DNA from: an uncultured Bacteriovoracaceae bacterium
GTDB taxonomy: Bacteria; Bdellovibrionota; UBA2428
DNA length: 64,000 bases
NCBI GenBank assembly: GCA_964538275.1
Contig: CAZIFW010000006.1
Coordinates: 5,826 to 69,825 of the forward strand
Direction: 5' to 3'
Every line of letters starts with the position of its first letter. Within the stretch, counting starts at the first letter, position 1. This document shows, one piece after another, positions 23,734-63,998 of this stretch. Position numbers and translations under genes: made by a program. Below the pieces are notes generated by a model. It did no database searches. It was given only the letters and a program-made list of their open reading frames with translations, and was not told the origin of the DNA.

Positions 23734-24711
23734 TTATTTTGATGAATCGTTAAAACCCATGAGATGAAAACCTAGGGTAGGCCAGTTCTCATCCTTCATC
23801 CGAGCCTGAATGTAGTCTTCGAATTTAACATCGCCCGTTACTTTGGCTTCACTGCTTGCATGGCGGAGGTAGAGTTCCCCGTCTTTTTCTATAATAAAAC
23901 CTTGGTGTGTAACCATAACGAAGGTCTCTTTGGTTGATCGTTCATTCTTTACTAAATTAAAAAGAACCACGCGTTCTTCCAAGAGCTTCTCCTTGACGGA
24001 ATTTTCTAGAAGATTTTTCAAAGGGACATATTTAAGTTTGCCTAGTTCGCTGACTACTTGGTTGGGGCCGATTTGTTTGAGTTCTCTTTTTTTGGCATCG
24101 TAGCGGGGATCTTGCGGATCTAGGGCATCAATTTTTTCATTTAGCCAAGCCTGTGTATCAATCCATTTTCTGCGCTCAGGAGCATCGGCAAAAAATTCTG
24201 TGGTGATATCGCGTAAGAATCCTTTTTTAATAACGTTCGGTACCCAGTGTAGAGATGTAAAATGATTGCGATTGCTGTAGCAAACTTCGTTTGCATTACA
24301 GTACTTGATTTCGCGAAAGGTTTTTAAAAAGTCGCTAAATTCTGCAGAAGAATTAGAAAGACTCATGGCTAAAACAACTTCAACAAAAGTTGTGCAGTCA
24401 AAAACGTCTAAGCGGGTGAGGGGTTTGGTATCATAAGCACCAAAGGCACTTTCGCCGCAAGGGCCCCACTCAAAGGGACGGTCAAGAAGGGCTTCGCTTA
24501 CGAACAAAAGTCGATCGCGCTTTTCTTCGATATCTGCGGACTTTTTAAGAAGAAATTTAATCTCTTCTACGCTTTCACTGGGAATGGCATTTAGAGCTGA
24601 GCTTATTGAGAGCAGGTTTAGGATTAGGAAGGGGTGACTGAGCTTCTTAAGGAATGCCATATTGTGCAGCGCATAATACAGGTCCATGCACTGAGGGTCA
24701 AGAATTCTCAT
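23734..24711 (-). CDS. DUF1460-like (amidase/transglutaminase-like fold) protein.
   Basis: Signal-like N-terminus. Motif RLDVFDCTTFVEVVLAMSL resembles the conserved DC(S/T)xFVE core of DUF1460 proteins. Assigned from memory, with low certainty. Confidence 0.4.
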   Translation of the reverse strand: MRILDPQCMDLYYALHNMAFLKKLSHPFLILNLLSISSALNAIPSESVEEIKFLLKKSADIEEKRDRLLFVSEALLDRPFEWGPCGESAFGAYDTKPLTRLDVFDCTTFVEVVLAMSLSNSSAEFSDFLKTFREIKYCNANEVCYSNRNHFTSLHWVPNVIKKGFLRDITTEFFADAPERRKWIDTQAWLNEKIDALDPQDPRYDAKKRELKQIGPNQVVSELGKLKYVPLKNLLENSVKEKLLEERVVLFNLVKNERSTKETFVMVTHQGFIIEKDGELYLRHASSEAKVTGDVKFEDYIQARMKDENWPTLGFHLMGFNDSSK

Positions 24712-26307: not shown

Positions 26308-26799
26308 TCAAAGCTTACATTCTTGCTGCTTGTTGGAATTTGCCCAAAATTTGGCAGCCTTTTGGTCGTAGCACCATCCGGCACTTGAGTTGGCCTCAAT
26401 TCCAAGGCAAGGGTTTTCTGGAATATAAGTACAAGCAGTGACTGCTTGGCTAACTTTAAATGGATTGTGTGGGATTTTGTCGCTTAAAAATTGTTTTTCA
26501 TTTGAAGTGGGAATTTGAGCGTTACGACAAGGAGCGTTTTTTCCGTGAGTGATGTCGTTTGAATTGAGTTGTTCAACATGAATGGGGGTTTCAAGTGTGG
26601 CCCCACAGCGGATAAGCATATTCATTTTTTGGAGCTCTAGGCTGGTCCTGACTGCGCCTAGTATACCTTGAGTGCTTGCGGTACGAGCAGTGTTTTCGAG
26701 TTGAGTAAATTGAGGCAAAACGCCTGCGCTGAGCGAAGAAAAAATTACCAGAGATGAAATAGTTTCAAGAGTAGAAAAACCTTTCTTCGTTTGAGTCAT
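26308..26799 (-). CDS. Type IV pilin / T2SS pseudopilin-like protein.
   Basis: Class-III signal KKG|FSTLETISSLVIFSSLSAGVL with Glu at +5. Four Cys in the C-terminal globular part. Confidence 0.55.
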   Translation of the reverse strand: MTQTKKGFSTLETISSLVIFSSLSAGVLPQFTQLENTARTASTQGILGAVRTSLELQKMNMLIRCGATLETPIHVEQLNSNDITHGKNAPCRNAQIPTSNEKQFLSDKIPHNPFKVSQAVTACTYIPENPCLGIEANSSAGWCYDQKAAKFWANSNKQQECKL

Positions 26800-26925: not shown

Positions 26926-27507
26926 CTACCACTGAATCGTTTTATTGTTTTCAATCCATTTTAGAATTTCCTTGCTGGCAACAAAAGAAATCCCATGAAA
27001 GATAACTCGTTTTCTGTCGTTGTTAGCACTCAATATTCGAGCTTCAAAACTAACATCTAACATTGTTTTTTTATCAGTAAGGTGTACGGTGCAATAAGTG
27101 AAAGGTAGGCTTTCGGGAACAGCTTCTTTTAAGAGTGCGCCACCTGCTGAAAGATTTAAAGTTTCAACTTTAAAACTCATATCGTTTTTCTTAAATTCAA
27201 TGCTAACTTTACAATCCAAACGAAAATGCTTTCGACGTTCAGCTTCACGTTTTTCCTCTCGAATGATTTTAATGGAATCTTGAATAGCGGCCTTTTCTTT
27301 AGGGCTACTTGTGAAGAGCGTATTGTGAGCAATGAACTCGGGTGGTTGATCGTTCTTTTGGATAAACCACGTTGCTTGCTCGTCAGGACTAAGCATTGCT
27401 AAAAAAAAGTGGGCAGAATCTTCGCCTAAGACTTTTATTTTTACGCGTTCATCACTCGAGCTACTAAAACACCACACACTTGTATCTTCTTGAGTCATAC
27501 AGAGCAT
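26926..27507 (-). CDS. PilZ-domain (c-di-GMP-binding) protein.
   Basis: RRKHFRLDCKVSIEF (RxxxR) and LSAGGALL (D/NxSxGG) PilZ motifs in the C-terminal half. Confidence 0.65.
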   Translation of the reverse strand: MLCMTQEDTSVWCFSSSSDERVKIKVLGEDSAHFFLAMLSPDEQATWFIQKNDQPPEFIAHNTLFTSSPKEKAAIQDSIKIIREEKREAERRKHFRLDCKVSIEFKKNDMSFKVETLNLSAGGALLKEAVPESLPFTYCTVHLTDKKTMLDVSFEARILSANNDRKRVIFHGISFVASKEILKWIENNKTIQW

Positions 27508-27601: not shown

Positions 27602-28225
27602 TTGACTCGGCATTCATTTTGCACACATGCAAGCATGAAAAAGTTGCCCGTGCGTGGAAAGAATCAGTTTGCTTTGAGGGTTTCCTCTGGTTTCAATCAA
27701 GGAGCCTTAATTACCCTCTCTAAAAAGAAGTCGGTGCTTGGCCGTAGCTTCAGAGCAGCAGTTCCTTTAGAAGACGAAAAAGCTTCTCGAGAGCACACGC
27801 AAATCCTAAACGAAAACGGAAAGTTTTACGTTTCTGATATGGGCTCTACCAACGGCACCTATTTAAATAATGAATTAATTTCTGCTCGCCGCGAACTCAA
27901 AGCAGGCGATCTCATTCGTATTGGAAGCAGCGTGTTTCGTTTTGAAACTCTAAGCTCTAAAGGAATGGAACTCAGTGAACGTTGGAAAAACGCTACCAGT
28001 GTTATCCCACGAGCAAGCTTTAGTTTTGAAGAGCTTTCTAAAATTCAACCTGACAAGTATCGTTTTATTAAACGCAATGTTCGTAAGATTCGTCGAGCAG
28101 TCGATTATTTACATACATTAACTCTGAGTGAAATGGAATTGTTTTTTGTGAAGTTAGAACTTGGTGCTACCAAGTTTTTCTTCAAATTTCACAAAACCCT
28201 CGAACGCATGCGTATTTTGAAATAA
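27602..28225 (+). CDS. FHA-domain protein.
   Basis: FHA core LGRSFRAAVPLEDEKASREHTQILNENGKFYVSDMGSTNGTYLNNELI (GR…SR.H…G..y.l.DlgStNGT). The probable true start is MKKLPVRGK at 27635. Confidence 0.7.
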   Translation: MTRHSFCTHASMKKLPVRGKNQFALRVSSGFNQGALITLSKKKSVLGRSFRAAVPLEDEKASREHTQILNENGKFYVSDMGSTNGTYLNNELISARRELKAGDLIRIGSSVFRFETLSSKGMELSERWKNATSVIPRASFSFEELSKIQPDKYRFIKRNVRKIRRAVDYLHTLTLSEMELFFVKLELGATKFFFKFHKTLERMRILK

Positions 28226-30321: not shown

Positions 30322-31383
30322 TTACTTGGAGTCTTTAATTTTTAACTGAAATTCACGCACGTTTTTATTGTGAGCTTTATAGTCTTCCGCAAAAACGTGA
30401 GAGCCATCCCCGCGACTTACAAAATACAAATAAGGTGTCGCTGCAGGGCTTAAAACAGCACGCAAGGCTTTTTCTCCAGGATTGCATATAGGTCCAGCGG
30501 GCAACTCAGGAACTTTATAGGTATTGAAAATACTAAAAGTTGTAAGATGTATGCGCTTTAAGTTTCCATCAAAGTTGGGCATTAATCCGTAAATTGTTGT
30601 GGGGTCAGACTGCAAAGGCATTTTGATTTTTAAACGATTCCAAAAAACAGATGCCACAAGCGGCTGTTCTTCTCCATTACCGCTTTCTTTTTCCACAACA
30701 GATGCCAAGGTAAGTAAGCGATGAAAGCCTAGGTCGTCTTTAGCCCAAGGGTGGCGGCTTAAAATATCGCGAGCTCGACCGTCAAATTGAGTAAGCATTT
30801 CTTGTACAACACTTCTTATAGAGTCGTATTTTTGAATAGAATAGGTTTCTGGAAATAGGTAACCCTCAAGACTCCTAAAGTTTTTAGTTCCTTCTTTTCC
30901 AGCAAGGTTATTTGCTTTAAGAATTTCTTCTTCGCTGGGTAAACGCATTTTTTTAAGAAGCTCAGGATCTTTCATAAGAGCATCGAACTCACTGGCTTTA
31001 AAGTATGGGAGCGTGCCCCACGCTGTGCGAATGTCCCAGCGATTGTAACCTTCTTTAACTAAGAGGTTGCGAGAAATTCCTTTGCCATCTGTAACTGCTT
31101 CTAAAATTTGCAATGAAGAAAGGGGCGGAGTGAGTTGGTATTCTCCCACTTTTACTTTTTTATCGAGTTTTAAAACGCGAGCCATAATTTTTGCTGGCAA
31201 TTCAGGAATTTCAATTTGTTGCTCCTTGAGTTTGCGTAAGATACTTCCAAAGCTACTACCAGGTGGAATATCAATGATCACCTCACCCTTAAGCGTTGGA
31301 TTGGGCTCTGATACAAAAGTGTGGTGAACATAAAAAGCGCCTGCGGCTAAGATAAGAAATACCAATGCAATAAATTTTTTCAT
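30322..31383 (-). CDS. mltG: Endolytic murein transglycosylase MltG (YceG-like).
   Basis: N-terminal TM helix and a YceG domain (…YLFPETY…, …QSDPTTIYG…). Overlaps ruvX by 4 nt. Confidence 0.85.
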   Translation of the reverse strand: MKKFIALVFLILAAGAFYVHHTFVSEPNPTLKGEVIIDIPPGSSFGSILRKLKEQQIEIPELPAKIMARVLKLDKKVKVGEYQLTPPLSSLQILEAVTDGKGISRNLLVKEGYNRWDIRTAWGTLPYFKASEFDALMKDPELLKKMRLPSEEEILKANNLAGKEGTKNFRSLEGYLFPETYSIQKYDSIRSVVQEMLTQFDGRARDILSRHPWAKDDLGFHRLLTLASVVEKESGNGEEQPLVASVFWNRLKIKMPLQSDPTTIYGLMPNFDGNLKRIHLTTFSIFNTYKVPELPAGPICNPGEKALRAVLSPAATPYLYFVSRGDGSHVFAEDYKAHNKNVREFQLKIKDSK

Positions 31384-44275: not shown

Positions 44276-45301
44276 ATGATCATGATTGAGAGTGGCACGG
44301 GATGGGCCGGGAAACTTCAGGATCGTCCTTCATTTATACTCTCTTGGGGTAAAAGCAAAGAAAACCCATCTCTCTTTTACGATCTAGCATCTCTGACAAA
44401 AGTTATAGTCACGGGTTCTCTACTTTTAGAGCTTTGTATGGAGCTCAAAAAAACTATCGAAGAATTCAAAGAACTCACACTCGATACTTTTTTGCCTCAA
44501 TCATCTGTATCGCTCTCTAAGCTCAAAGTGGGCGAAGTATGGGAGCATCGTGCCGGATTAAAATCACACTTTTTACTTGATCCCCTAAAGTCAAGAAATG
44601 CATTTTCCGGAACTCGCGCACAATTATGGACGTATGTTTTAGATCAAATTTCACAGCAAGGAATGAGTTCTAACAAAGACTGCGTATACTCTGATTTAGA
44701 CTTTTGGGTACTCGGTGCGCTTTTAGAAACACATTATAAAAAAGATCTTAAAGAACTTTGGCAGGATTACAAAAAAAAGTATTCATTGCCTTCAAATGAT
44801 CTCGTCTATGGTCCGATCATGGAAGATGTTGTCGCAACTGAGACTCGTCACCCTATAGGGATAGTGAACGACGACAATGCTTGTTTTATGCAAGGCATTG
44901 CGCCCCACGCAGGTTTGTTTGCAACAGTCGAAGCTGTTTGGGAATGGATGCTTTTGATGCAATTCCACTATGATAAAAACCCAGCTCTTCAGAGTTTTTT
45001 TGTGCCTCAAGGCGATAATCGTTTTTGGTGTGGATGGGATCGTCCAAGTGAAGAACTTAGCCAAGCGGGCGAGGGGGCTCCTCGCGAGGAAGTGCTGGGG
45101 CATCTTGGATATACGGGAACAGCGCTTTGGTGGGATCCGGTCACACGTTGGGGTGGAGTATTGTTAACCAATAGAGTTTATCCCTCTCATACAGAGGCGA
45201 GTAGAGAAGAAGTTAAAGCCCTTCGAATTAAGTTTTTTAGTTTGTTGTGGCATTCAAACAAAGACGAACTTTGGGCAGCCCTTCAGCAAGAGATAACTTA
45301 G
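44276..45301 (+). CDS. Beta-lactamase-family serine hydrolase (class C / esterase-like).
   Basis: S-x-x-K active-site motif LASLTKV near the N-terminus, a Y-x-N-like motif (VYSDLDF), and overall PBP/beta-lactamase-like length. Confidence 0.6.
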   Translation: MIMIESGTGWAGKLQDRPSFILSWGKSKENPSLFYDLASLTKVIVTGSLLLELCMELKKTIEEFKELTLDTFLPQSSVSLSKLKVGEVWEHRAGLKSHFLLDPLKSRNAFSGTRAQLWTYVLDQISQQGMSSNKDCVYSDLDFWVLGALLETHYKKDLKELWQDYKKKYSLPSNDLVYGPIMEDVVATETRHPIGIVNDDNACFMQGIAPHAGLFATVEAVWEWMLLMQFHYDKNPALQSFFVPQGDNRFWCGWDRPSEELSQAGEGAPREEVLGHLGYTGTALWWDPVTRWGGVLLTNRVYPSHTEASREEVKALRIKFFSLLWHSNKDELWAALQQEIT

Positions 45302-45691
45302 TTATTTTTTTCTTCTTAGTTTTATAGAACCATCAGGACGTTGATTTTTAGATTTGAAGCGCTCAGAAGTGATGCCATTTTTTTTGGGGTTTTTTAAATG
45401 ACCCCTTTCGTGGGCGCGCTGACGCCACCTCAAAAAAGATGAACTCTTGAGCTGCATGCGCATAAAAATCACAACATCATCGGGTTTGAGTCCAAATTGT
45501 TTTTCTATCAATTCAAAAGGAGTACGGTCTTCTAGAGCCATACTGATAATACGGTCGTAGTCTGATTCGGGAATGCGAGCGATACGATCTTTTCTGTTCA
45601 CATCATTCACATAAACAAAAATAGAGACATTCTTCGAATAGGATTTAACTCGCTTTAAATCCCCATTGAAGGAAAAAGAGAACACATGCAC
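45302..45691 (-). CDS. DUF2805 (TIGR03643-like) small conserved protein with a Lys/Arg-rich C-terminal tail.
   Basis: DYDRIISMALEDRTPFELIEKQFGLKPDDVVIFMRMQLKSSSFLRWRQRAHERG matches the DUF2805 core (…riiemAWeDRTPFeaIe.qFGl.e..Vi.lMR.el.pssFr.WR.Rv…). Confidence 0.55.
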   Translation of the reverse strand: MHVFSFSFNGDLKRVKSYSKNVSIFVYVNDVNRKDRIARIPESDYDRIISMALEDRTPFELIEKQFGLKPDDVVIFMRMQLKSSSFLRWRQRAHERGHLKNPKKNGITSERFKSKNQRPDGSIKLRRKK

Positions 45692-45701
45692 TCTGTGATC
45701 T

Positions 45702-46394
45702 ATGCAAGAAGCAACGAAGTGGGTTACTCGCCAGAGGTGGGAACATGTTCAATTTTTACACTTCACTGGGGCTGCCGAAGTGGTTCGGTCAGTGCTTCCG
45801 AAAGAGCTCGAGCTTGATTGTTGGCAAAATGAAGCTGTTCTCTCTGTTGTTCCGTTTCGAATGACTCGCGTGCGATTTCCTGGAGTTCCATCAATTCCAG
45901 TTTTATCTAATCTTTGGGAACTCAATTTACGAACGTATGTTAAGTATAAAAGTCAGAGAGGGGTTTATTTTTTTACACTTGAAAGCAGCAATCCTTTGGC
46001 GACATGGGTGGCGCGTACTTTTTTTTCACTTCCCTATGCAAATTCAAAACTCCAAGTGAATAAGGCTCATCAAGATAACTTTCACACAATTCATAGAAGA
46101 GGAAATCTGAGTTGTGAAATTGTATGCGACTTGAAGAGCGGCGTTGAGTTTATAAAAAATGACTTTTCGGATTGGGCGACCGAACGCTATTGTCTTTTTA
46201 ATGTGAAAAAAAATAAGGTTTATAGGGGAACAGTCTTTCATAATCCTTGGAAGTTAAACGCTTTAGAGGTGAAAAAGTTTGAAGGAAACTTTCTTTCATT
46301 AGTGCCAAATGCGGATAGTTTCAAACTGTATGCATCCAGCTATTGTCGTTTGATTGACGTAAGTTTTAAAGCCTTTGAAATCATGGGTACTTAA
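45702..46394 (+). CDS. DUF2071 (COG3361) family protein.
   Basis: WEHVQFLHFTGAAEVVRSVLPKELELD…AVLSVVPFRMTRVRFPGVP…ELNLRTYVKY…GVYFFTLESSNPLATWVARTFFSLPYANSKL follows the DUF2071 consensus as recalled from memory. Confidence 0.55.
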   Translation: MQEATKWVTRQRWEHVQFLHFTGAAEVVRSVLPKELELDCWQNEAVLSVVPFRMTRVRFPGVPSIPVLSNLWELNLRTYVKYKSQRGVYFFTLESSNPLATWVARTFFSLPYANSKLQVNKAHQDNFHTIHRRGNLSCEIVCDLKSGVEFIKNDFSDWATERYCLFNVKKNKVYRGTVFHNPWKLNALEVKKFEGNFLSLVPNADSFKLYASSYCRLIDVSFKAFEIMGT

Positions 46395-46474
46395 ACCTGA
46401 TTGAACTGCAAAATGGCGAGCTATTTTGGAGCTTTTTTGCTTTAGTCTTAACTTAAAATTGACGATAAGTAAGG

Positions 46475-48106
46475 GTGCTTGGCTTCTCCTTTTTTATCTT
46501 AGAAAAGAAAGTTTTTTTTCTTAGATACTTCATATTTATAGCGGGATCTTTCTTGTTTTCGCTTCAGACTAACGCTGTGATTTGCAGACATGCTTTGGGA
46601 GTAGAAGGATCCGAAAACGGCGGAGCTTCTAATCCTACAAGCAAAGCTACAACCTCTAGGCCCGATGATTTAAAAACAGCAGTGAATCCTTATGGTGATG
46701 GTTTCGTGCGAGAAGCCCATGAGACTGAGCGCGAAGGGCAGCTATACAATGTAAATGAAAATTTTAATTCCAAAGTTGATGAAAAAGGCAATCCTAGAAA
46801 AGACGGGCGCTACTTATTTGTAGTCGCGCGAGATATCGATGGAGTTCGTCGCATCATGGTTGTTCCACGCTTTGATTTTGATAGAGCCGATGGAAAATTT
46901 TTGAGCACACATCGCTCTATGTTTAGAAAATATCGCGACGTTTTTGGTCCCACTCCCTCTATTGAAGTTATGGGAGAAATTGAAATTAATGCGGGAACTG
47001 TGGTGTCTTACAATAATAAAGCGGGTACGGGTTATGATCCCAAAGAGGCCGAAGACCCTCATTTGTTTGAACAAAGAAAAGCTATTGCTGAGTCTATGGG
47101 AATTGATTTGTCTAAAGCTGATCGAGTTGTGAATTATACTCCCATAGCTATTGAGGCCGAAAAAAATAAAGAAAAAGCCCGAATCCCAGGGAGGCACATT
47201 GAAGAAGAAGAATTTGTTGTGAGAATGAAATTGCTCTACGAGCAGCCCATCTTACGCGAAATGATTCAGAAGCAAGATAATTTAGTTCAGCGAGCCTATG
47301 CGCTCTTTCCTCAAAATATAGAAAAAAATCCCAAGCGTATTTTTAATTTCAAAGAAGAGCCCCTTTTATCCTTAGGCATTCCACTCTTGGAGCAAGGGAA
47401 TTTAGAAATGACTACAAGTCTCTCCCAGGATCATGGAGCGGGAACAATGATGGCAAATATGCTAATTAACAATAACTCGGGAGCTTTACCATTTGCTAAG
47501 TACTTAGATAATTTTGAAAAACTTGTCCTTTATTTAGAGGCTAAAAAAGACGGTAAGACTTTAAGCGTACCCGATTGGACCAAAGATCAAAGTGATCTTC
47601 CTTCTCGATATTTAGCTCAGCATGCTCAAAGCGGCGAAAAAACTGTAAATGACACCAGACAAAAAATCTTAATGGCAGAAGGTCGACCGGATCCTTTGGA
47701 ACCAGAAAAGAATTTAAAAATCCTTAATTGGTCGCTTACTCCAGGTGAAAAGCATTACTTAACTTCTGATGAAAAAAGAAATGAGATTATAAATGCGCAA
47801 CTACTTTTAGAAGAATTGCGTGAACGCTTTGGTATTACTAAAGATCGCGGTGGACCTTTTGATTACAAAAAGTTTTCAGAAACTATGCGTTTTGATGAAG
47901 ATAATGGATTTACAGAAGACCACATAGCGAACAAAATGATTTACGATTTACTCATGGAAAGTGAGCGCTCCGGGGGGCAACCCCTTAAACTGTACGATGA
48001 AATGTCTAAATCAGCTGAAGCTGCTCCAGAAGACGACATGTATATGAATCCTCTTCCCTCTACTGTGGTAGGTGCTTATCTGAGGATCTTAGGTATTCGG
48101 CCTTAG
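46475..48106 (+). CDS. Hypothetical secreted protein, 543 aa.
   Basis: Signal-like N-terminus (…KKVFFLRYFIFIAGSFLFSLQTNA|V). No recognisable catalytic motifs. AT-rich gene. Confidence 0.5.
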   Translation: MLGFSFFILEKKVFFLRYFIFIAGSFLFSLQTNAVICRHALGVEGSENGGASNPTSKATTSRPDDLKTAVNPYGDGFVREAHETEREGQLYNVNENFNSKVDEKGNPRKDGRYLFVVARDIDGVRRIMVVPRFDFDRADGKFLSTHRSMFRKYRDVFGPTPSIEVMGEIEINAGTVVSYNNKAGTGYDPKEAEDPHLFEQRKAIAESMGIDLSKADRVVNYTPIAIEAEKNKEKARIPGRHIEEEEFVVRMKLLYEQPILREMIQKQDNLVQRAYALFPQNIEKNPKRIFNFKEEPLLSLGIPLLEQGNLEMTTSLSQDHGAGTMMANMLINNNSGALPFAKYLDNFEKLVLYLEAKKDGKTLSVPDWTKDQSDLPSRYLAQHAQSGEKTVNDTRQKILMAEGRPDPLEPEKNLKILNWSLTPGEKHYLTSDEKRNEIINAQLLLEELRERFGITKDRGGPFDYKKFSETMRFDEDNGFTEDHIANKMIYDLLMESERSGGQPLKLYDEMSKSAEAAPEDDMYMNPLPSTVVGAYLRILGIRP

Positions 48107-48205: not shown

Positions 48206-49738
48206 ATGAAAGTAGAGATAAAAGCCATGGAAAGCGCTAAAACAACACAACAAACGATAAATCAGCATTGGGTTCACTTCGTTGCAATTGGGGGCACGGG
48301 AATGGGCGCACTCGCAAGTTTATTTAAATCTCTGGGGGCCAAAGTGACTGGAAGTGATGGCCCAATCTATCCTCCCATGAGTTTATTTTTAGAAGCTCAA
48401 AAAATCCCACTCGCGCAAAGCTACGGTGAAGAGAATTTACAAGGATCAAGGTGGGGGTTTTCAGAGGCACATCCGAGTATTGTCATAATTGGAAATGCGA
48501 TTTCAAAAACCAATTTAGAAGCTCAAGCTGTAGAAAAGCTTGCTGCTCAAAGTAAATTACGCCGAATGAGCTTTCCTGAAGCCATTGGTGAATTCATGAT
48601 TCAAAAACGCACAAGTCTTGTGGTTGCGGGCACTCACGGAAAAACAACAACAACTTCTTTGCTAGCGTGGGCATGCGAAGTTTTAGGAAATGACCCAGGC
48701 TTTTTTATTGGTGGAATACCTAAAAACTTTGAAAGTGGCTCTCGAATGGGTACGGGAGTTTTTGCTAGCGAAGGTGATGAATACGATACCGCTTATTGGG
48801 ATAAGGGGTCTAAATTTTTACACTACAGACCAACATGGGTTTTAGGAACGGGCATTGAATTTGATCATGCGGATATTTATACATCTGTGGAGCAAATTGA
48901 AGAAAGTTTTTTAAAACTGGTGCCACTCACGGCAGAAGGCTGGCTTTTGATTGATCGTGTATCGGCACCTAAAGTTTCTAGCGTTGAGAAAATTGAAAAT
49001 GCCCTCAAAAAAATTGGCAAAAAATGTTTTCGCTACGGCGAAGATCCGGACTCCCCCTTCTCGTTGATGGGTTGGGAGCGTTGTCCGCTTCCATGGAATG
49101 AGCGTTCTTTTGGATTAAAGTTTCAAGTCAGTATTCATGGAGAAAAACACACTTTTGTAAGCCCCATGGTGGGCCGTCATAACTTATTAAATGCTTTAGG
49201 TGTAATGGGTGTGTTGCATTCCGCGGGTGTTTTAAAAAAGATTTCTGATTTTCAAGAAGTTTTACAAACATTCAAAGGCGTTACGCGTAGACAAGATATC
49301 TTACTTGAAAGTGAAAATTTTATCTTGATGGATGATTTTGCTCATCATCCAACAGCTATTAAAGAAACAATACAAGCAGTCAAGGAACGCTTTCCTCAGT
49401 ATTCTCTTGCTGCTTTTTTTGAGCCGCGTTCTGCAACTTCAGCTCGCAATACAATGTATGCAGATTTTGTAAAATCTTTTTCTGCAGCCGATGCAGTGTT
49501 TATTCAAGAAGCTACAAAAGTAAATGTTCCTGAGGCCGAACGTTTAAAAGTTCACGATCTTGTAAGAGAAGTTATTGGACGTGGTAATACAGAGTTTGCA
49601 AGCAGTAAAAAAACGATTGAAGAACTCGCTGCTGAATTTATAAATTGGAAAAGTAAAAAAGAAAAAGTTCTAGCTTTGGTTATGTCGAATGGAGCTTTTT
49701 CGGGCTTAAATAAAAAATTACTCGAGTTGGTCAAATAG
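48206..49738 (+). CDS. mpl: UDP-N-acetylmuramate:L-alanyl-gamma-D-glutamyl-meso-diaminopimelate ligase (murein peptide ligase Mpl).
   Basis: HFVAIGGTGMGALA…VTGSD, GTHGKTTTTSLLA and DEYDTAYWDKGSKFLHYRP. The C-terminal VMSNGAFSGLNKKLLELV closely parallels E. coli Mpl (…DEYDCAFFDKRSKFVHYCP…, …MSNGGFGGIHQKLL…). It is isolated from the dcw cluster, which also argues for Mpl rather than MurC. Confidence 0.8.
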   Translation: MKVEIKAMESAKTTQQTINQHWVHFVAIGGTGMGALASLFKSLGAKVTGSDGPIYPPMSLFLEAQKIPLAQSYGEENLQGSRWGFSEAHPSIVIIGNAISKTNLEAQAVEKLAAQSKLRRMSFPEAIGEFMIQKRTSLVVAGTHGKTTTTSLLAWACEVLGNDPGFFIGGIPKNFESGSRMGTGVFASEGDEYDTAYWDKGSKFLHYRPTWVLGTGIEFDHADIYTSVEQIEESFLKLVPLTAEGWLLIDRVSAPKVSSVEKIENALKKIGKKCFRYGEDPDSPFSLMGWERCPLPWNERSFGLKFQVSIHGEKHTFVSPMVGRHNLLNALGVMGVLHSAGVLKKISDFQEVLQTFKGVTRRQDILLESENFILMDDFAHHPTAIKETIQAVKERFPQYSLAAFFEPRSATSARNTMYADFVKSFSAADAVFIQEATKVNVPEAERLKVHDLVREVIGRGNTEFASSKKTIEELAAEFINWKSKKEKVLALVMSNGAFSGLNKKLLELVK

Positions 49739-49746
49739 GGGGCTAA

Positions 49747-50580
49747 TTGAAAAAATTTCGAGCGTCTGAACTTTCTGGACAAGGTACGCTTGAATATATT
49801 TTATTAACTGCTCTTGTTGTTGGCATTGTAATGACAGCTTTCAACGGACCCTTGCGTCGCTTTCTTGCAACCTATCAATCGCGCCAAACTGAATACACAA
49901 ATGTTATGACCCAAAGAAACATGGGTATACCTATGGGATGGTTTGGTGGAAATTATGCCAACCCTGGCGGTGGACCGGGAGCTACTGGAGGCGCAACTGC
50001 TGGTGCTGATCCTGGAGCTGACCCAGCTGATACTCCACCCCCCACGGGTGCAGGAGAGGTTACTCCTCCTGCAGTAGCAGGCACAAATGGCCAAGCTGGA
50101 GATGGTGCAAATCCACCTGAAGGACCAACAGGATATGCAGGTCCTGGTGGCGCAGGAGCAGGCCCGAATAACTCACTTTTAAGTCCGTCAGACACCCGAA
50201 CAGCTGCAAATACACGCGGAGGCAGAGGGGGGCGAACGACTGCGGGTGAAGGAGATGAAGAAGGTACACAAGAGGGTGGCTCTACTGCAAGAACAGGCGG
50301 CTTGCCTGCAAACAGAGCGGGCTCTGGTTCTATAGAAGATGAAGATGAGCAGGCACCTCCAAATGAAACAGAAGAAGAAAAACAAGCACGCGTTCGCCGA
50401 GCAGAAGAGGGCGAAACTTTAAAGCAAGCAGAGGGCTTGTATGGGCCAACTACGCGACGTGTTCGCGAGGGCTCCTGTGGGGATTTGGATTTAAAGGTTA
50501 TCTTGCAAATTGCATTTGTAATTGGTCTTTTCTTTTTGTTGGCAAGTATGCTTTTTCAAAAACGTGGGCGTGGCGATTAA
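49747..50580 (+). CDS. Flp-pilin-like N-terminus fused to a ~200-aa Gly/Pro/Ala/Thr-rich disordered region and a C-terminal TM helix. TTG start in the ORF track.
   Basis: N-terminal …ELSGQG|TLEYILLTALVVGIVMTAF resembles the Flp/Tad prepilin G/xxxxEY motif. The core GGGPGATGGATAGADPGADPADTPPPTGAGE… is low complexity. The C-terminal segment VILQIAFVIGLFFLLASMLF is hydrophobic. It starts 8 nt after the mpl stop. Confidence 0.5.
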   Translation: MKKFRASELSGQGTLEYILLTALVVGIVMTAFNGPLRRFLATYQSRQTEYTNVMTQRNMGIPMGWFGGNYANPGGGPGATGGATAGADPGADPADTPPPTGAGEVTPPAVAGTNGQAGDGANPPEGPTGYAGPGGAGAGPNNSLLSPSDTRTAANTRGGRGGRTTAGEGDEEGTQEGGSTARTGGLPANRAGSGSIEDEDEQAPPNETEEEKQARVRRAEEGETLKQAEGLYGPTTRRVREGSCGDLDLKVILQIAFVIGLFFLLASMLFQKRGRGD

Positions 50581-50634: not shown

Positions 50635-50994
50635 GTGAAAAAAATATTAGCATTGTTATTTGTTTTATCTGGGACTTCACTTGCAATTGCAGAAGAGGGT
50701 GGACCTAAAGGAAAGAATTTTGAAGAAGCCAAGGCTCACGCTTTAAAGATGCTTGATGCAAGAACAAAGGCGCTTCAGGAAGCAAAGACTTGTATAAGTG
50801 CGGCTAAATCACATGACGATTTAAAAAAATGTCATGAAACTATGAAAGAACATCGTAAAGAATTTAAAGAGTCTCGCCAAGAGTTTCGAGAAGAGCGCAA
50901 AGAAAAGCGTGAAGAGTGGAAAAACAAACGCAAGGAATGGAAAGAAAGTCGTGGAAAAGACGCCCCTCCTCCTCCACCTGAAGGCGAAGAATAA
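50635..50994 (+). CDS. Small secreted charged-helix protein (KEKREE / REE repeats), periplasmic Spy/CpxP-like in composition.
   Basis: Signal peptide (MKKILALLFVLSGTSLAIA|EE). Two Cys, then …KEHRKEFKESRQEFREERKEKREEWKNKRKEWKESRGKDAPPPPPEGEE. Confidence 0.5.
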   Translation: MKKILALLFVLSGTSLAIAEEGGPKGKNFEEAKAHALKMLDARTKALQEAKTCISAAKSHDDLKKCHETMKEHRKEFKESRQEFREERKEKREEWKNKRKEWKESRGKDAPPPPPEGEE

Positions 50995-54007: not shown

Positions 54008-56206
54008 CTAGTTATTTTCTTCAATATTTTGAATCCAATCATGAATAATTTGGGTAGCTTTTAGGTCTACTCTATTACTGGAAATGGGAGGCATTCGAAT
54101 ATTTTTGTTTGAAGAATGTGTTCTTTGAAAAATTGAGCTCAGAGAAGGATCTCCAGCTTTCACTCTGTAAGGCATGTAGGTGTCCTCAAATCTGTCTTGA
54201 ATGCTTGGAACGTTTATAATGTTCATGTCTTGAGTAGCAATATGATACCTAAAATCCATTTGGCCTGGCGCGGGACCACTTGCACTGTGACAGCTGGTAC
54301 AATTTGCAGCCAAGTAACTTTTACTTCTTAGCTCTAGCGAAGCTCCAGACAAATACGGGTTCACAAGACTTTGGTACTGAAACACGCTTCCTATATTTCT
54401 ACTGAAGAGATTGTTGTTTTTCATACGCTCTAAAAAATTAGTCGCTAAGTCGGATGAATTATTAAGCTGTCCGGTATGAGCTCCTAGAACAAAGCCTGCA
54501 GACATGTTGTGGCATACAAGACAATTATTTCTGCTGGGATAATTCCACTTTAAAGGAACTTCTTTAGAAGAAAGTAAAAGTTCTTCCTCGGGAGTCGCCT
54601 TTACTAAAAGTTCCTCCGTGAGTTCTCCGTCTAAAAGAAAAGCTTCGTTTTGTTCGTCATTCCACTTGTAGGTGTAGCCTCTCCATCCTTCTGTGTGATG
54701 AAAGAGAACTCTTGTTTCTAGTCTTTTAGTGCGGCCATTCGCTAAAGGGATTTGAAAATGTTTTATAAAATAAGTGCCTACGGGAAAGCTCCATTCGGTG
54801 CGAGGAGTAAACCCAATTTTACCTACACTGGGTAGAGCCATCCAACGTGATTTTTCTGCACCATCCGACCAAAGAGGAGAGTTGACGGAATATTTTTCTA
54901 AGCCCTCAACAGGTGTAAGTGTTTCAAGATTTGAGAAAAAACCAGCTTCTGAAAGTTTTTCAGGAATTGCCATTTGATTGTTAGGCTGAGTTTCTTTTTT
55001 TTCTCTAAGTTTATAAATACTGCCGGTATGACTAATTACGTAAAGCTCGCCTTGTAGATCTTGAGCAAAAGAACTGGGTTGAGATATTTGAGCAATTTCA
55101 AAATTAGCTAAACCAATGGTGTCGTTGTGTTTTAAAGCCCATATTTGGCCTGATACGTAGTCTCCGTAAATATAGTGTCGTTTGAGCTTAGGCATGAGGT
55201 TACCGTTGTAAACGTAACCTCCTGTTATGCTTCTTCCAGGATTGTGAGCGTATTCCCATACAGGCTTTACAAAAGAGTCTTGAGTGAGATTCTCAGGGTT
55301 GTTGTGGTTGGTGCTGGCTTCGAATATTCGCCAGCCATAGTTTTTTGCCTTTTGGATAATGTTGATTTCTTCGAGTCTATTTTGCCCCACATCTGCTAGC
55401 CAAAGTTGCTGAGTTTCTTTATCAAAAGAAAAACGCCAAGGGTTGCGTAGTCCTAGCGCCCAAATCTCGGGGCGATAATTTGCTTGAGAAGTAAAAGGAT
55501 TATCATTTGGTATTGAGTATGTGTTTTGATTATTAACATCAATGCGCAAAATTTTGCCCCAGAGGGATTCAGTGTTTTGAGAGTTATTAAAAGGGTCTCC
55601 AGCTCCACCTCCATCACCCACACCGATGTAAAGCATTCCGTCGGGTCCGAAAGAAATCATACCGCCGTTATGGTTAGTATACTCTCTAAAGTCTTTTCTA
55701 ATTTCTAAAATAACTTCATTAAAGTTTGGGTCAGCAATTAGGGGATTTGTTAGAGAACGGCGCATGCGCGCAATGGCTAGTCGAACGGGATTATCAGCGG
55801 TATAGGAAACATAAAAATAACCACTTGTTTCATAGTCGGGAGCAAAGGCTAGGCCGAGTAGTCCCATTTCGCCACCTTGCTGAGAAACTTTGTTTCTTAA
55901 ATTGGCAAAATTTTGTGAAGAGGCATTTGTATTAGGTCGCTTTGTAACAAGTTTTATAACTCCACTTTGTTCAACAACGTAGAAGTTTTCTTCCTGCTCA
56001 GATGCTTGGGTCATAAAAATCGGCTGATTGAATCTGATTCCCGTGAAAGCATCGCTTAGTTCTACTTGAGAGGAATCAGGCGCATTGAGCGGAAACTTAG
56101 AGCTCTTGGGCCTGAACGGACTTTGAGCCAATGAGTTTTGAGAAATCAGTAGAATCGATAAGCAAATAAGTAAAAACTTAGAAATTTTCATGTGTAGCTT
56201 CCTCAT
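54008..56206 (-). CDS. PQQ-dependent soluble sugar (glucose/sorbosone) dehydrogenase beta-propeller fused to a C-terminal di-haem c-type cytochrome domain.
   Basis: Signal peptide. GSDH motifs …[28 protein letters not shown]… and …YGWRIFE…. Two CxxCH motifs (NCLVCHN, NCTSCHS) in the C-terminal ~250 aa. Confidence 0.8.
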   Translation of the reverse strand: [732 protein letters not shown]

Positions 56207-57506
56207 TTAAATTAAGCGTGTATTCTTCAAAAAAATTATCTTCAACATTTCCGGTTTTAATTGTTCTTAAGAGAAGTACATTTCCATTCGGTTTAAAACT
56301 TGGAAAGCTAATGCCCTCGTTTTCTTTCATGCCGGCAAACTCCCAAGTTGCTCCGTCTTCAATGCGGGTGATGTATGCGCCCAAGTTTACTTTTTGGCTT
56401 TCGTTTGTGGCTATATAGGTAACAAATTTATTATCATAGCTAAAATCTACTTTGCTTGTTCGAGTACCTAGATCAAGTACTGATTGGCAGGTCTTATCTA
56501 GGGTGTTTACTTTTATGATATGTGTTGTGTGAGTGCCTTCTGGGCCGAAGAGGTAGCCTCCAATCATTGTTCCGTCTTTTGAGAGAATGGGAGTAGATGC
56601 TTTTAAGTTGGGGCAGAGTAAAGTTTTGTTACCAATCGGAGTTATCGTATTTTCAGTTTCGTTAAATGAGAAATCTTTGTAGGCAACTTCAAGGCTCCAT
56701 GCCGTAATCACTCTGTAAGTGTTTGCCTCCAATATCCCAATAGACTGATATTGATCAGACATTTCGTCGTCTTGGTAGATAGGTGAAATGTTTAAAGCGT
56801 TAGAGGGGTTTTCAAAAATACTTTGGGCATTGAAAAACCTAAGTCGAGTGGGAAGGGTTAAAAAGCGAGCGTCTGGTGAGGCAATAAGATCAAAAGCACC
56901 TTGAAAGGGAATCTCTTTTAAATTTAGCGTATCAAAGAGATATGTTTTATCTCCCGTATAATAAGATTGAAAAACATCATTAACAGGTCGACTGTAATAG
57001 CCAATCTTTCGAGGTATTCGAATTTTTTTAAGCTCTATTATTTCAGCTTCGAGAGCTTTTTTTGTTAGGGAATTAAGAGGGGAAATAGAAATAGCTGTAT
57101 TGCACTGAGATTTGAGAAGTGAAAAAAGTTCCTTAAGTGTTGGACCTTCTTTAAAGCCTGGAACAAGTGATCCACAAATTCTTGATTTCTTAAAAAGTGA
57201 AATCGAAGGGTAATGATGAAAAAATCCTAACTTTATAAAATTCTCAGAAGCCTCAATAAGTGGAAATTTAGAATTTAATAATGGATTTAAGGGGTCGTTG
57301 ACTACTAAGAGTTTTATTTTATTCGCTTTGGCTAGAATTTTGATACCTTTAAGGCCCTCTTTAGACAAAGGCATGGCTTCGGATACTGCATAGACAAGAG
57401 TGAGGGGTTCGTTATGAGTAATTTTTTGGAATTCAGACCACGTTAGCGTTTTGCCATGAGCAAATTGAAAGATGAGTAGAAAGAAAAGTAAGAGTTTTTT
57501 CATCAC
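56178..57506 (-). CDS. Hypothetical secreted protein, 442 aa. Its 3' end overlaps the start of the PQQ-dehydrogenase gene by 29 nt.
   Basis: Signal peptide MMKKLLLFFLLIFQFAHG|K. No recognisable motifs. The C-terminal half has a beta-rich pattern. AT-rich. Confidence 0.45.
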   Translation of the reverse strand: MMKKLLLFFLLIFQFAHGKTLTWSEFQKITHNEPLTLVYAVSEAMPLSKEGLKGIKILAKANKIKLLVVNDPLNPLLNSKFPLIEASENFIKLGFFHHYPSISLFKKSRICGSLVPGFKEGPTLKELFSLLKSQCNTAISISPLNSLTKKALEAEIIELKKIRIPRKIGYYSRPVNDVFQSYYTGDKTYLFDTLNLKEIPFQGAFDLIASPDARFLTLPTRLRFFNAQSIFENPSNALNISPIYQDDEMSDQYQSIGILEANTYRVITAWSLEVAYKDFSFNETENTITPIGNKTLLCPNLKASTPILSKDGTMIGGYLFGPEGTHTTHIIKVNTLDKTCQSVLDLGTRTSKVDFSYDNKFVTYIATNESQKVNLGAYITRIEDGATWEFAGMKENEGISFPSFKPNGNVLLLRTIKTGNVEDNFFEEYTLNLNEEATHENF

Positions 57507-62233: not shown

Positions 62234-62919
62234 TGCCCTCTAAGAAGTTTCGAGTACGACGTACTGAAGAAAAAGATATTCCTGCGTTGATTGATATTTG
62301 TAAATTGGTTTATCCAGACAGTCCCGCGTGGTCTGAAGCTCAGCTCTTATCGCATCAAAAAGTTTTTTCTGAAGGACAGCTTGTTGCTGAATCTGTAGAG
62401 ACTGGAAAAATAGTAGGTTTTGCGGCTTCATTGATTGTGAATTGGGACGACTATGAGTGGGTCACTCCTTGGCGTGATTTTACTGACGGAGGAATGTTTA
62501 CAAATCATGATCCTGTGCAGGGTCGCACGTTGTACGGAGCGGAGATTATGGTAGACCCGAGTTGCCAGGGTACAGGATGTGGCAAGGCTTTATATGTGGC
62601 CCGACAAGAATTGGTTGAGCACCTTAAATTAGTTCGTATTCGTGCAGGAGCGCGCTTAAGAAGTTACCATAAATACTCTTCTAAAATGAGTGCTGAAGAT
62701 TATGTAAAGCAAGTGGTGAATGGAAAGTTGATAGATAAAACTTTAACTTTCCAACTCAAGCGAGGTTTTCACGTGTTAAAGGTAATATCAAATTATCTGC
62801 GGCACGACCCAGAAAGTTTGGGATATGCCGCAGTGATTGAGTGGATTAATCCCAAAGAAGCTAGCGAGCGACACTATGAACAACTTAAGAAAAGCCCTTA
62901 CTTCATACTGCCGTCGTGA
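62233..62919 (+). CDS. GNAT-family N-acetyltransferase. Its start overlaps the C-N hydrolase stop.
   Basis: Acetyl-CoA-binding-type segment …MVDPSCQGTGCGKALYVARQELV… (Q/RxxGxG/A). Translationally coupled to the upstream hydrolase. Confidence 0.6.
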   Translation: MPSKKFRVRRTEEKDIPALIDICKLVYPDSPAWSEAQLLSHQKVFSEGQLVAESVETGKIVGFAASLIVNWDDYEWVTPWRDFTDGGMFTNHDPVQGRTLYGAEIMVDPSCQGTGCGKALYVARQELVEHLKLVRIRAGARLRSYHKYSSKMSAEDYVKQVVNGKLIDKTLTFQLKRGFHVLKVISNYLRHDPESLGYAAVIEWINPKEASERHYEQLKKSPYFILPS

Positions 62920-63998
62920 TGAGTCCACAAGTGCTTGGGCCATGAATGTATAATGATCCTTTTCTTTTCGTGATCTATTGCAAAATAAATTCTCTTTTTA
63001 TTACTTAGTTTTATGTGCGGCCATGCAATGTAAGTAGTGCCTTCAAAGACAAAGCTTCTCTCTTCTTGAGCGATTAATTTTTCTTTCGTAACGCTTGTTT
63101 CGTCAAAGGCTATATCAAGACCGGTTAATTGTTTAAACAAGGCAGCTTTGCTTTCAAGATTCTTGGGCGCACCTTGTTTCCAAAGGATGTGCCACAAGCC
63201 TGTGAGTGAAGAATAAATTTCTTGGCTTAACTCTAAGTCTCGAGCATCAGAAACAGATAGAGAGTCTAATTGTTTTTGGGCCTGAGCGTTGATTGCGAAA
63301 GAATTTGGATGAAGAGCAGATGCAAAGGCAACGGCATTTTTTACACTGCTTATTCCCTGGACTTCAAGTTCTCTAAGCCGTTGCAATTCTGCTTCACTTA
63401 AAGTACCTGCACGTTCTAAAGAAAGTATTCTTTCACGAAGAGAGTTCTCTGCGGATTTACTACTATGAAGTTTGATCTCTAATGCTGCGATTTTCTGGTC
63501 TTTAAGAGTAATTTCATCTGCTGCAATTTCAAGAGCTTTGTCTTCGGCTAAGCGCAGTTGTTCAGCTTGATGTTGAGCTAACTCTTTTTCAAGTTTTTCA
63601 ATGCGAAGTCTTTGTTCTTCGACTTTAGCCCTAAGGCTCTCGGATTCAGTATTGTTAGGGTGTAGGGCGCTTTCTGTGCTCAGGTTTTGATTCAATGTGG
63701 AATCTACATCGGGTGTTGCTTCATCAGGCGTTCCAAGAGCAGTTTCTTCAGTTAATAGGACTTGAGCACTTTTAGCAGAATTATCATGCATTCCTTTCAT
63801 TCTTAAATATGTAGCTTTGTGAACAAGGTCGATAAGCTTTGCATGTTCAATAAAATCTATCAAAGTTCTATTAAGACCATTCAATATTAAAGGATCTGAA
63901 AGTCCATTTTTTAAATGTTTTGGTGAATATATAAAATTATTAAAGTGATCCAGTAAGAGCAAAACTGGTTGTCCGTCTTCAATCTCTGCAAGTAGCAT
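62898..63998 (-). CDS. Hypothetical coiled-coil protein. Its start lies 2 nt from the window edge and the true N-terminus may lie beyond it.
   Basis: Long Glu/Leu/Lys/Ala-rich heptad region (…LRAKVEEQRLRIEKLEKELAQHQAEQLRLAEDKALEIAADE…). Confidence 0.4.
   Translation of the reverse strand: MLLAEIEDGQPVLLLLDHFNNFIYSPKHLKNGLSDPLILNGLNRTLIDFIEHAKLIDLVHKATYLRMKGMHDNSAKSAQVLLTEETALGTPDEATPDVDSTLNQNLSTESALHPNNTESESLRAKVEEQRLRIEKLEKELAQHQAEQLRLAEDKALEIAADEITLKDQKIAALEIKLHSSKSAENSLRERILSLERAGTLSEAELQRLRELEVQGISSVKNAVAFASALHPNSFAINAQAQKQLDSLSVSDARDLELSQEIYSSLTGLWHILWKQGAPKNLESKAALFKQLTGLDIAFDETSVTKEKLIAQEERSFVFEGTTYIAWPHIKLSNKKRIYFAIDHEKKRIIIHSWPKHLWTHHDGSMK

Follow-up and report, generated by a model that had tools for sequence, protein, structure and literature searches.

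A class III signal on a putative membrane hairpin protein genetically coupled to an Mpl-like ligase in Bdellovibrionota

Introduction

Class III signal peptides are treated as a hallmark of type IV filament subunits. Such a signal consists of a hydrophilic leader of 6–26 amino acids (aa) that ends in Gly and is followed by 21 mainly hydrophobic residues with a Glu at position 5, and class III signals are also found on proteins other than classical pilus subunits, for example the sugar-binding "bindosome" of Sulfolobus (Berry and Pelicic, PMC4471445). Here we describe a gene, which we call X, in a 64,000-nucleotide stretch of DNA (the window) from an uncultured Bacteriovoracaceae bacterium of the phylum Bdellovibrionota (GenBank assembly GCA_964538275.1, contig CAZIFW010000006.1, positions 5,826–69,825 of the forward strand). 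In the list of open reading frames (ORFs) of the window, X occupies positions 49747–50580 of the forward strand and encodes 277 aa from a TTG start; we annotate its product as a putative class-III-signal membrane hairpin protein. It lies directly downstream of a gene for a Mur ligase that resembles Mpl. All positions below are those of the window unless a related locus (L001 and so on) is named, and all features of X are on the forward strand.

The pseudopilins TadE, TadF, and TadG are longer than Flp pilins and carry an N-terminal motif of the G-Q-x-x-V-E-[FY] type that is processed by TadV. X is unlike them in that it has no match to PF07811 (TadE) and no folded C-terminal domain, in that it does not sit among tad genes in the loci examined, and in that it ends in a transmembrane (TM) helix. 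The G|Q junction seen in X is typical of Epd-type pilins. These pilins and the Sulfolobus bindosome represent the archaeal class III signal proteins described by PF04021, which is the best Pfam match of X, but X is unlike the archaeal proteins in being bacterial, in having no globular ligand-binding domain, in its C-terminal TM anchor, and in scoring below the PF04021 gathering threshold.

Like X, the Flp/Fap pilins (PF04964) have a short, basic leader with Gly as its last residue, together with the G/XXXXEY motif and a hydrophobic helix that is ~21 residues long (PMC5430801). Genomes of Bdellovibrio and like organisms carry several flp genes that are not tied to tad loci (PMC5430801), so that these pilins include members from the same phylum as X, presumably served by the same peptidases, PilD or TadV. 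However, X at 277 aa is about four times as long as the ~44–90-aa Flp pilins and adds a disordered loop of ~140 aa and a conserved second TM helix, and, unlike Flp pilins, it does not adjoin tad genes in the loci examined but follows the Mpl-like ligase. LpoA/LpoB, TonB, and TolA are alike by analogy only, in being membrane-anchored, in having a long flexible low-complexity segment that could extend as far as the peptidoglycan, and in their genetic link to cell-wall metabolism. Unlike them, X has no terminal globular effector domain and has both ends anchored in the same membrane, and we detected no sequence similarity of X to any of them.

X shares only its signal with Flp pilins, archaeal class III proteins, and TadE/F. 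The literature searched describes neither an Mpl partner nor the X architecture, and the architecture, the Mpl linkage, and the fusions described below are without a described counterpart in the libraries and literature searched.

The N-terminal signal of X

X begins with an 11-aa leader peptide, MKKFRASELSG (M1–G11, positions 49747–49779), which is basic, with three basic residues, and ends in the Gly that would stand at position −1; the median leader in the family is ~12–13 aa. At least 90% of 40 family members have Gly11, and the TTG is the sole possible start for this leader. The leader is followed by TM helix 1 (Q12–F32, positions 49780–49842), an α1-N-like tract of exactly 21 mainly hydrophobic residues, QGTLEYILLTALVVGIVMTAF, after which comes N-G-P. 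The tract has Glu at +5 and Tyr at +6. AlphaFold2 (AF2) places a helix at residues 12–31 with a predicted local distance difference test score (pLDDT) of 80–85; the AF2 models are of low confidence overall (predicted template modeling scores of 0.16 and 0.27) and were used for helix and disorder boundaries only. If the cut is placed after Gly11, X has all of the sequence features that define a class III signal (PMC4471445), and it also has the Flp/Fap motif, G/XXXXEY plus a hydrophobic stretch, in the form G11|QGTLEY17.

The Pfam model PF04021 (Class_IIIsignal) matches residues 11–29 of X at E=2.9e-4 and 21.1 bits, and it matches 10 of the 40 family members at E<=0.01, with a best E value of 1.4e-5. 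Together with the 21-residue tract and the Glu and Tyr at +5 and +6, this bears out the proposal of an earlier note, made from the sequence alone, that the N terminus resembles those of Flp/Tad prepilins. The same note placed processing at G13|TLEY, but this is the wrong register, because after a cut at G13 the Glu would fall at +3 and break G/XXXXEY; the Flp register is G11|QGTLEY. We also scanned the window in all six frames for G-x4-E-[hydrophobic] followed by a hydrophobic tract and recovered the site in X and one other, which ends after 20 aa and is spurious.

Coupling of X to an Mpl-like ligase

The gene directly upstream of X (positions 48206–49738, forward strand) encodes a 510-aa Mur ligase with the Pfam domains Mur_ligase, Mur_ligase_M, and Mur_ligase_C. 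In NCBIfam it scores highest against TIGR01081 (mpl), with 290 bits versus 240 bits for murC. Because both scores are below the equivalog cut-offs (388.7 for mpl), we call the ligase Mpl-like; its relatives are named Mpl in their source records. At ~510 aa the ligase compares with ~460–470 aa for annotated Mpl proteins, and a long branch sets its clade apart from the Mpl proteins annotated in Nitrospina and Deltaproteobacteria. The ligase may act on a substrate other than that of classical Mpl.

X is directly 3′ of the Mpl-like gene in all seven unfused loci that we recovered (the window, L001, L002, L005, L006, L008, and L011), and where unfused it begins 6–44 nucleotides (nt) after that gene. 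Elsewhere the two are joined into a single polypeptide. There are 10 full-length Mpl::X fusions of 745–805 aa (P0029, P0032, P0103, P0108, P0117, P0126, P0127, P0134, P0138, and P0139), and an eleventh, P0019 in L014, is cut by the contig end. In L010 and L013 the fusion is read as a single ORF that no internal stop interrupts. Each of the 10 full-length fusions keeps Gly at −1, Gln at +1, Glu at +5, and Tyr or Trp at +6, and each keeps the GIP..W[FV] motif, the Cys motif, and TM helix 2, with single substitutions in P0032 (GTP) and P0138 (the final V).

In a neighbor-joining tree of the ligase domain, nine fusions form one clade in which two unfused ligases are nested, while P0029 falls elsewhere. 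The tree therefore points to two or more fusion events and one or more reversals. The fusions span ~50% ligase divergence. From these loci we conclude that the coupling of X to Mpl, as read from gene order and gene structure, is obligatory in the loci recovered, and that the fusions are stronger evidence for it than adjacency. This genetic coupling to the Mpl-like ligase, fusions included, is the decisive context that the earlier note missed.

A β-lactamase-fold serine hydrolase is also encoded near the ligase (positions 44276–45301, forward strand; Pfam PF00144). It has the SxxK motif SLTK and weak similarity to PBP4B, and because it has no signal peptide it is probably cytoplasmic, where it could possibly serve as a murein-peptide trimming enzyme. 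In relatives its gene is immediately upstream of mpl, which it abuts or overlaps in L001, L005, L011, and L013, and the overlap covers the mpl start in L005 and L011.

Loop, C-terminal helix, and family of X

Following TM helix 1 is a region (positions 49843–49950) made up of a presumably periplasmic helix extension at residues 33–54 and a signature motif, Q56-x3-G-I-P-x2-W-F66 (positions 49912–49944), which were delimited by conservation and by AF2 helices at residues 33–54 and 63–66. Next comes an acidic, disordered loop rich in Gly, Ala, Pro, and Thr (residues 69–208, positions 49951–50370), as judged from composition, AF2, and GC content. These four residues make up 64% of the loop, and only 8 of its 140 residues are hydrophobic. 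AF2 predicts residues 67–208 as coil with low pLDDT, in keeping with the disorder that had been proposed from the sequence, and the loop-coding DNA has 54–58% GC versus 36–42% in its surroundings. There are no tandem DNA repeats in the loop, and reverse-strand ORFs in the GC-rich stretch were dropped as unsupported.

The loop is followed by a charged amphipathic helix (residues 209–231, EEEKQARVRRAEEGETLKQAEGL, positions 50371–50439), which has an AF2 pLDDT of ~75 and is conserved among close homologues. The disordered region had previously been put at ~200 aa. This holds for the whole stretch between the two membrane helices, which is ~215 aa, but the disordered part proper is ~140 aa and is then followed by the charged helix. 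A juxtamembrane motif, G-S-C-G-D-L-D (positions 50470–50490), contains a near-invariant Cys244, present in at least 90% of the 40 aligned members, while a distant subfamily has F-D-W-W. The protein ends with TM helix 2 (residues 249–272) and a basic tail, RGRGD, before the stop (positions 50491–50580). This helix, which the earlier note had also recognized, is evident from both the Kyte-Doolittle profile (maximum 2.64) and AF2 (pLDDT ~85), and the TM helix 2 region is the best-conserved block among close homologues. AF2 predicts no globular pilin domain in X, a Foldseek search of the AF2 model against PDB gave 0 matches, and a PDB sequence-profile search with X gave low-complexity noise only.

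A first search with X found 10 homologues of 43–100% identity, and those with a label were all from Bdellovibrionota metagenome-assembled genomes (MAGs). A profile search of 1.84 billion representatives gave 55 proteins at E<1e-3, 29 of them at E<1e-10, almost all of them 255–308 aa long and aligned end to end. A word-indexed second homologue search added little; low-complexity words fill its candidate list. Related genomes thus hold an X family of ~45 clusters at 50% identity with the same architecture, all drawn from metagenomes or MAGs. The cluster members are all singletons from metagenomes, every labeled source record is a Bdellovibrionota or Bdellovibrionales MAG, and no family member carries a functional name or the name of a cultured organism.

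In an alignment of 40 sequences, Q56, P62, W65, and F66 are invariant, and G11, Q12, E16, Y17, L19, G60, I61, and C244 each occur in at least 90% of the sequences. The family signature is a basic leader, G|Q-x3-E-Y-x-L, TM helix 1, Q-x3-GIP-x2-WF, a low-complexity loop, G-C-x-D/N-x-D/N, TM helix 2, and G-[RK]-G-x-K. The spacing between the helices is conserved (213 +/- 15 aa in 63 members), but the loop sequence is not; pooled over the family, the loop is 23% Gly, 11% Ser, 9.5% Ala, 8% Asp, and 7.5% Glu, with a mean net charge of −7. The member farthest from the window protein is that of L011, at 18% identity, and it belongs to the Cys-less "FDWW" subtype. By these comparisons, X is the founding example of an undescribed family whose architecture is fixed family-wide.

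Proposed topology and mechanism

Mpl uses ATP and UDP-N-acetylmuramic acid (UDP-MurNAc), and its chemistry is therefore cytoplasmic. Because X is fused to Mpl, the N terminus of X would be in the cytoplasm, and with two membrane helices and the N terminus inside, the loop would therefore be periplasmic and the basic tail cytoplasmic. From the fusions we thus strongly infer a hairpin topology for X, with the N terminus in, the loop out, and the C terminus in. A membrane hairpin with a disordered loop was one of the roles offered in the earlier note, and it is the one favored here by the conserved C-terminal helix and tail and by the topology of the fusions. A Glu16-Lys250 salt bridge was considered and dropped, as the two residues would be on opposite membrane faces in this topology.

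The reading that we tentatively prefer is that X is an Mpl-coupled inner-membrane hairpin whose class III signal is probably cut by PilD or TadV. X is co-expressed with the Mpl-like ligase, either from the adjacent gene or within one Mpl::X polypeptide, and according to this proposal it would insert into the membrane as the hairpin described above. A prepilin peptidase (PilD or TadV) would then cut after Gly11 at the cytoplasmic face, and in the fusions this cut would release soluble Mpl. The fusion may be tolerated, recurrent, and reversed because cleavage would free Mpl and so make the fusion neutral. The C-terminal helix would block extraction into a filament, and mature X would stay in the inner membrane, where its WF motif would face the peptidoglycan, as would the acidic loop, which is long and flexible.

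By guilt by association, X would act in cell-wall turnover or recycling with Mpl and the cytoplasmic β-lactamase-fold peptidase encoded in the same operon; it could plausibly serve as a tether or sensor that reaches into the periplasm, or form a small oligomeric conduit through which murein peptides pass. A more specific version is that the unfused hairpin is the membrane component so far missing from a murein-peptide salvage module specific to Bdellovibrionota, acting as a sensor or small oligomeric conduit that couples periplasmic peptidoglycan fragments to Mpl, which would be a non-filament, metabolic use of a type IV pilin signal in bacteria. We regard this version as rather unlikely and put it forward as speculation.

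Several observations weigh against the cleaved hairpin. The PF04021 score of X is under the gathering score of 23.7, cleavage after Gly11 is a prediction, and a peptidase gene was not found within the 64-kb window. We know of no precedent for a "leader" of 470–520 aa, as there would be in the fusions. Synteny in this lineage goes beyond mpl-X to TPR-bamB-bla-mpl-X, and adjacency alone could therefore reflect a lineage-wide gene order. The cytoplasmic parts of X are tiny, and contact between X and Mpl is hard to picture when the two are unfused. There are also four Arg residues after TM helix 1 on the proposed periplasmic side, which is awkward for the positive-inside rule, and the biochemical role is without homology support from PDB sequences, Foldseek, or NCBIfam.

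Nearly as likely as the cleaved hairpin, although doubtful in itself, is that the class-III-like motif is not cleaved and is a plain signal-anchor, either a relic or convergent. X would then serve as an inner-membrane tether for Mpl, with a covalent bond in the fusions, and the hairpin and the coupling would be the same. That fusions are kept across ~50% ligase divergence suggests that the linkage is useful and not merely tolerated, and the lack of a nearby peptidase gene in the window scan and the sub-threshold PF04021 match point in the same direction, as does the contrast between prepilin leaders of 6–26 aa (PMC4471445) and the ~500 aa that precede the site in fusions. However, a generic anchor would not need the Gly at −1, Gln at +1, Glu at +5, and Tyr or Trp at +6 that all 10 full-length fusions and at least 90% of the unfused members retain. 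Most members are unfused, and cytoplasmic parts of ~10 aa and ~8 aa give Mpl little surface to hold. The two unfused ligases inside the fusion clade, moreover, mean that the covalent link is dispensable.

Relation to type IV filaments

PF04964 (Flp_Fap) does not match X at E<=10 and matches one of the 40 family members (2.4e-4), while Flp1_like is also matched by one. PF07811 (TadE) likewise does not match X at E<=10 and is absent among the families matched by the 40 members. No NCBIfam model matches X, and for the family NCBIfam gives only weak, sub-threshold pilin-type N-terminal matches (GspG, TafF, and ArlF). No prepilin peptidase, tad, cpa, or A24 peptidase gene was found among 58 window ORFs scanned with Pfam or NCBIfam; 4 more ORFs were read by eye. 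No tad or pil machinery gene adjoins X in nine related loci with flanking sequence.

TadV is present in Bacteriovorax and Halobacteriovorax, and Bdellovibrio is without it (PMC5430801), yet the PilD of Bdellovibrio bacteriovorus processes Flp1 (bioRxiv 10.64898/2026.07.08.737194). Peptidases able to cut Flp-type substrates therefore exist in the phylum, and the absence of a TadV-type peptidase from the genome, which the earlier note would have counted against its reading, is not a valid refutation in this phylum, because processing of Flp1 by PilD proceeds in an organism without TadV.

Elsewhere in the window, a 163-aa ORF (positions 26308–26799, reverse strand) starts with MTQTKKG|FSTLETISSLVIF, a classic type IVa prepilin or pseudopilin N terminus (G|F-x3-E). 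It has no Pfam match, and its neighbors encode PilZ-domain and FHA-domain proteins (positions 26926–27507, reverse strand, and 27602–28225, forward strand). This type IVa-like ORF and its PilZ and FHA neighbors make it probable that the organism regulates type IV filaments and possesses a PilD-type peptidase.

We also observed a sister family, Y (P0047, P0054, P0056, and P0058–P0063), with examples in P0060 and P0063 at L015 4044–4964 and L016 10001–10855. Y proteins match X in size (270–306 aa) and in architecture, which runs from a class III motif (GQxxxEYIL in Y) through a low-complexity loop to a TM helix at the C terminus. Unlike X, they have a juxtamembrane CLLExGELP with a Cys pair and a C terminus of the form GGQxxQISK, and their genes, which have no link to mpl, are flanked upstream by a divergently transcribed TPR gene and downstream by an HDOD gene. 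The Y gene of L015 is located 3.4 kb from a 63-aa Flp1_like gene. Since Y exists, the combination of class III signal, disordered loop, and C-terminal anchor looks like a recurring one in these bacteria.

X could be viewed as a component of a Tad or type IV filament, namely a minor pilin-like subunit that docks via α1-N as a basal anchor, terminator, or regulator, the link to mpl being incidental. The complete G/XXXXEY motif with its hydrophobic tract, the weak Flp_Fap, Flp1_like, GspG, TafF, and ArlF matches among members, the flp genes outside tad loci in Bdellovibrio-like genomes, the Flp1_like gene near a sister family member of the same architecture, and the prepilin-like ORF with PilZ and FHA neighbors are all consistent with such a role. 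We nevertheless consider it improbable, since the TM helix and basic tail at the C terminus, both highly conserved, should block extraction, AF2 predicts no globular pilin domain, tad and pil machinery genes are absent beside X in the nine loci, and the linkage and fusion to a cytoplasmic Mur ligase would be left unexplained. The pilin-like fiber or adhesin that had been suggested earlier is likewise disfavored by a length about four times that of Flp, by the C-terminal anchor, and by the lack of tad, cpa, or peptidase genes among the 58 window ORFs, so that a pilus-fiber role for X seems unlikely.

The C terminus as a possible sorting signal

The Cys motif, TM helix, and basic tail of X could also be viewed together as a C-terminal sorting signal in the style of MYXO-CTERM or GlyGly-CTERM, which an intramembrane protease would remove to yield a lipid-anchored or released surface protein. 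The layout bears a superficial likeness to such signals in being tripartite (GSC-GDLD with the near-invariant Cys244, the TM helix, and KRGRGD), and one member faintly matches a MYXO-CTERM-anchored family (E=0.21). However, no NCBIfam model of a C-terminal sorting signal (MYXO-CTERM, GlyGly-CTERM, PEP-CTERM, and similar) matches at E<=0.1, and the distant subfamily has no Cys and carries FDWW instead. In the 1.84 billion representatives, the C-terminal block is confined to this architecture (the X family, Y, and two short fragments), so it is not a tag shared among cargo proteins, and the loci examined showed no sortase-like gene. By these comparisons, X is unlikely to end in a generic sorting tag, and we rate this explanation as very improbable.

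Translation start of X

The stop of the Mur ligase gene, TAG, is at positions 49736–49738, which leaves an 8-nt gap before the TTG of X, and a TAA at positions 49744–49746, in frame with X, abuts the TTG on its 5′ side. A Shine-Dalgarno-like AGGGGG, read from the sequence at positions 49737–49742, overlaps the mpl stop and lies 4 nt before the TTG; similar purine-rich runs are present in L002 (TAGGAGG) and L008 (TAGGGGG). There is no promoter-like or terminator-like site between mpl and X in the window. X has two in-frame start codons, namely the TTG and, within the hydrophobic helix, an ATG at codon 39. Between the ligase stop and the motif, the window and loci L002, L006, and L008 have no start codon other than the TTG, which is located 6–8 nt past the stop.

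The orthologue in L008, P0003 (L008 4454–5278), was called from the internal ATG, and the signal is lost from the called protein. However, the L008 DNA 5′ of the called ATG encodes LKKFRASALSGQGTLEY in frame, after a TTG. Over codons 2–38, the window and L002 differ by 14 synonymous and 2 non-synonymous changes, and the window and L008 by 12 and 3. The ratio of non-synonymous to synonymous substitution rates (dN/dS) of X versus L008 is 0.06 in the N-terminal part, 0.11 in the loop, and 0.03 in the C-terminal part. This pattern indicates that codons 2–38 are under purifying selection. We conclude that the N-terminal motif is translated and that the TTG start stands, because the TTG is the sole upstream start and because of the synonymous excess in codons 2–38 and the dN/dS values. 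The earlier note had X start with a TTG 8 nt after mpl and allowed that the true start might be downstream of the Flp-like motif; the first holds up and the second does not.

Public gene calls are inconsistent for orthologues of X. P0003 is too short, as described above, and P0010 (L005 3980–4927) is probably too long, having been over-extended from an upstream GTG to give a 41-aa "leader," while a TTG sits 11 codons before the Gly at −1 of the motif.

X is a genuine gene that encodes a protein. That the signal is an artefact, with the true start at the ATG of codon 39 or the ORF not a gene at all, is effectively refuted by these comparisons and keeps next to no chance: although TTG is rare as a start codon, the spacer after the Shine-Dalgarno-like run is only 4 nt, and one gene caller did begin P0003 at the internal ATG, L008 encodes the motif in frame upstream of that ATG, the 14:2 and 12:3 ratios cover it, and the motif is kept both in members down to 16–18% identity to the window protein and in fusions, which need no start codon there.

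Other genes in the window

Downstream of X is a gene for a small secreted Lys/Glu-rich protein of 119 aa (positions 50635–50994, forward strand) with a Sec-type signal, two Cys residues, and a PPPPPEGEE tail, for which we found no family match in Pfam or NCBIfam. The gene is also downstream of X in L001, L002, L003, L004, and L008 but is absent from L005 and L006, and it was rejected as an obligate partner of X on that account. Between the hydrolase and mpl, the window has three genes (positions 45302–48106) that are inserted relative to L001, L005, L011, and L013. They encode a TIGR03643/DUF2805 protein (reverse strand), a DUF2071 protein (forward strand), and a 543-aa orphan that has an N-terminal hydrophobic segment and no family match and is also present in L002, L003, and L008.

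Further cell-wall turnover machinery is encoded in the window by a gene for an AmiA-like N-acetylmuramoyl-L-alanine amidase-like protein (PF07313; positions 23734–24711, reverse strand) and by MltG/YceG at positions 30322–31383. A 276-aa protein (positions 13832–14662, forward strand) has a lipoprotein-like N terminus (…LLLSAC) and matches ADP-ribosyltransferase (ART) exoenzyme/ART toxin domains (E=7e-11), and could possibly be a secreted toxin-like effector. Four large ORFs have no Pfam match at E<=1e-4: 2798–6079 (reverse strand, 1093 aa), 11230–12957 (forward strand, 575 aa), 56178–57506 (reverse strand, 442 aa), and 62898–63998 (reverse strand, 366 aa).

Significance

The anatomy of X and its genetic coupling to the ligase are solid; its biochemical function is what we infer from them. 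In the X family, a bacterial class III signal would stand on a protein that cannot act as a filament subunit and is instead tied genetically to a cytoplasmic enzyme of cell-wall recycling. Cleavage at the Gly|Gln site would give prepilin peptidases a substrate class outside pili and, in the fusions, a role in enzyme maturation. If the site is not cut, the pilin α1-N helix would have been re-used as an ordinary membrane anchor. The life cycle of predatory or Bdellovibrio-like bacteria depends on cell-wall remodeling, and, whether the site is cut or uncut, X would point to an unknown membrane component of peptidoglycan turnover in these bacteria.

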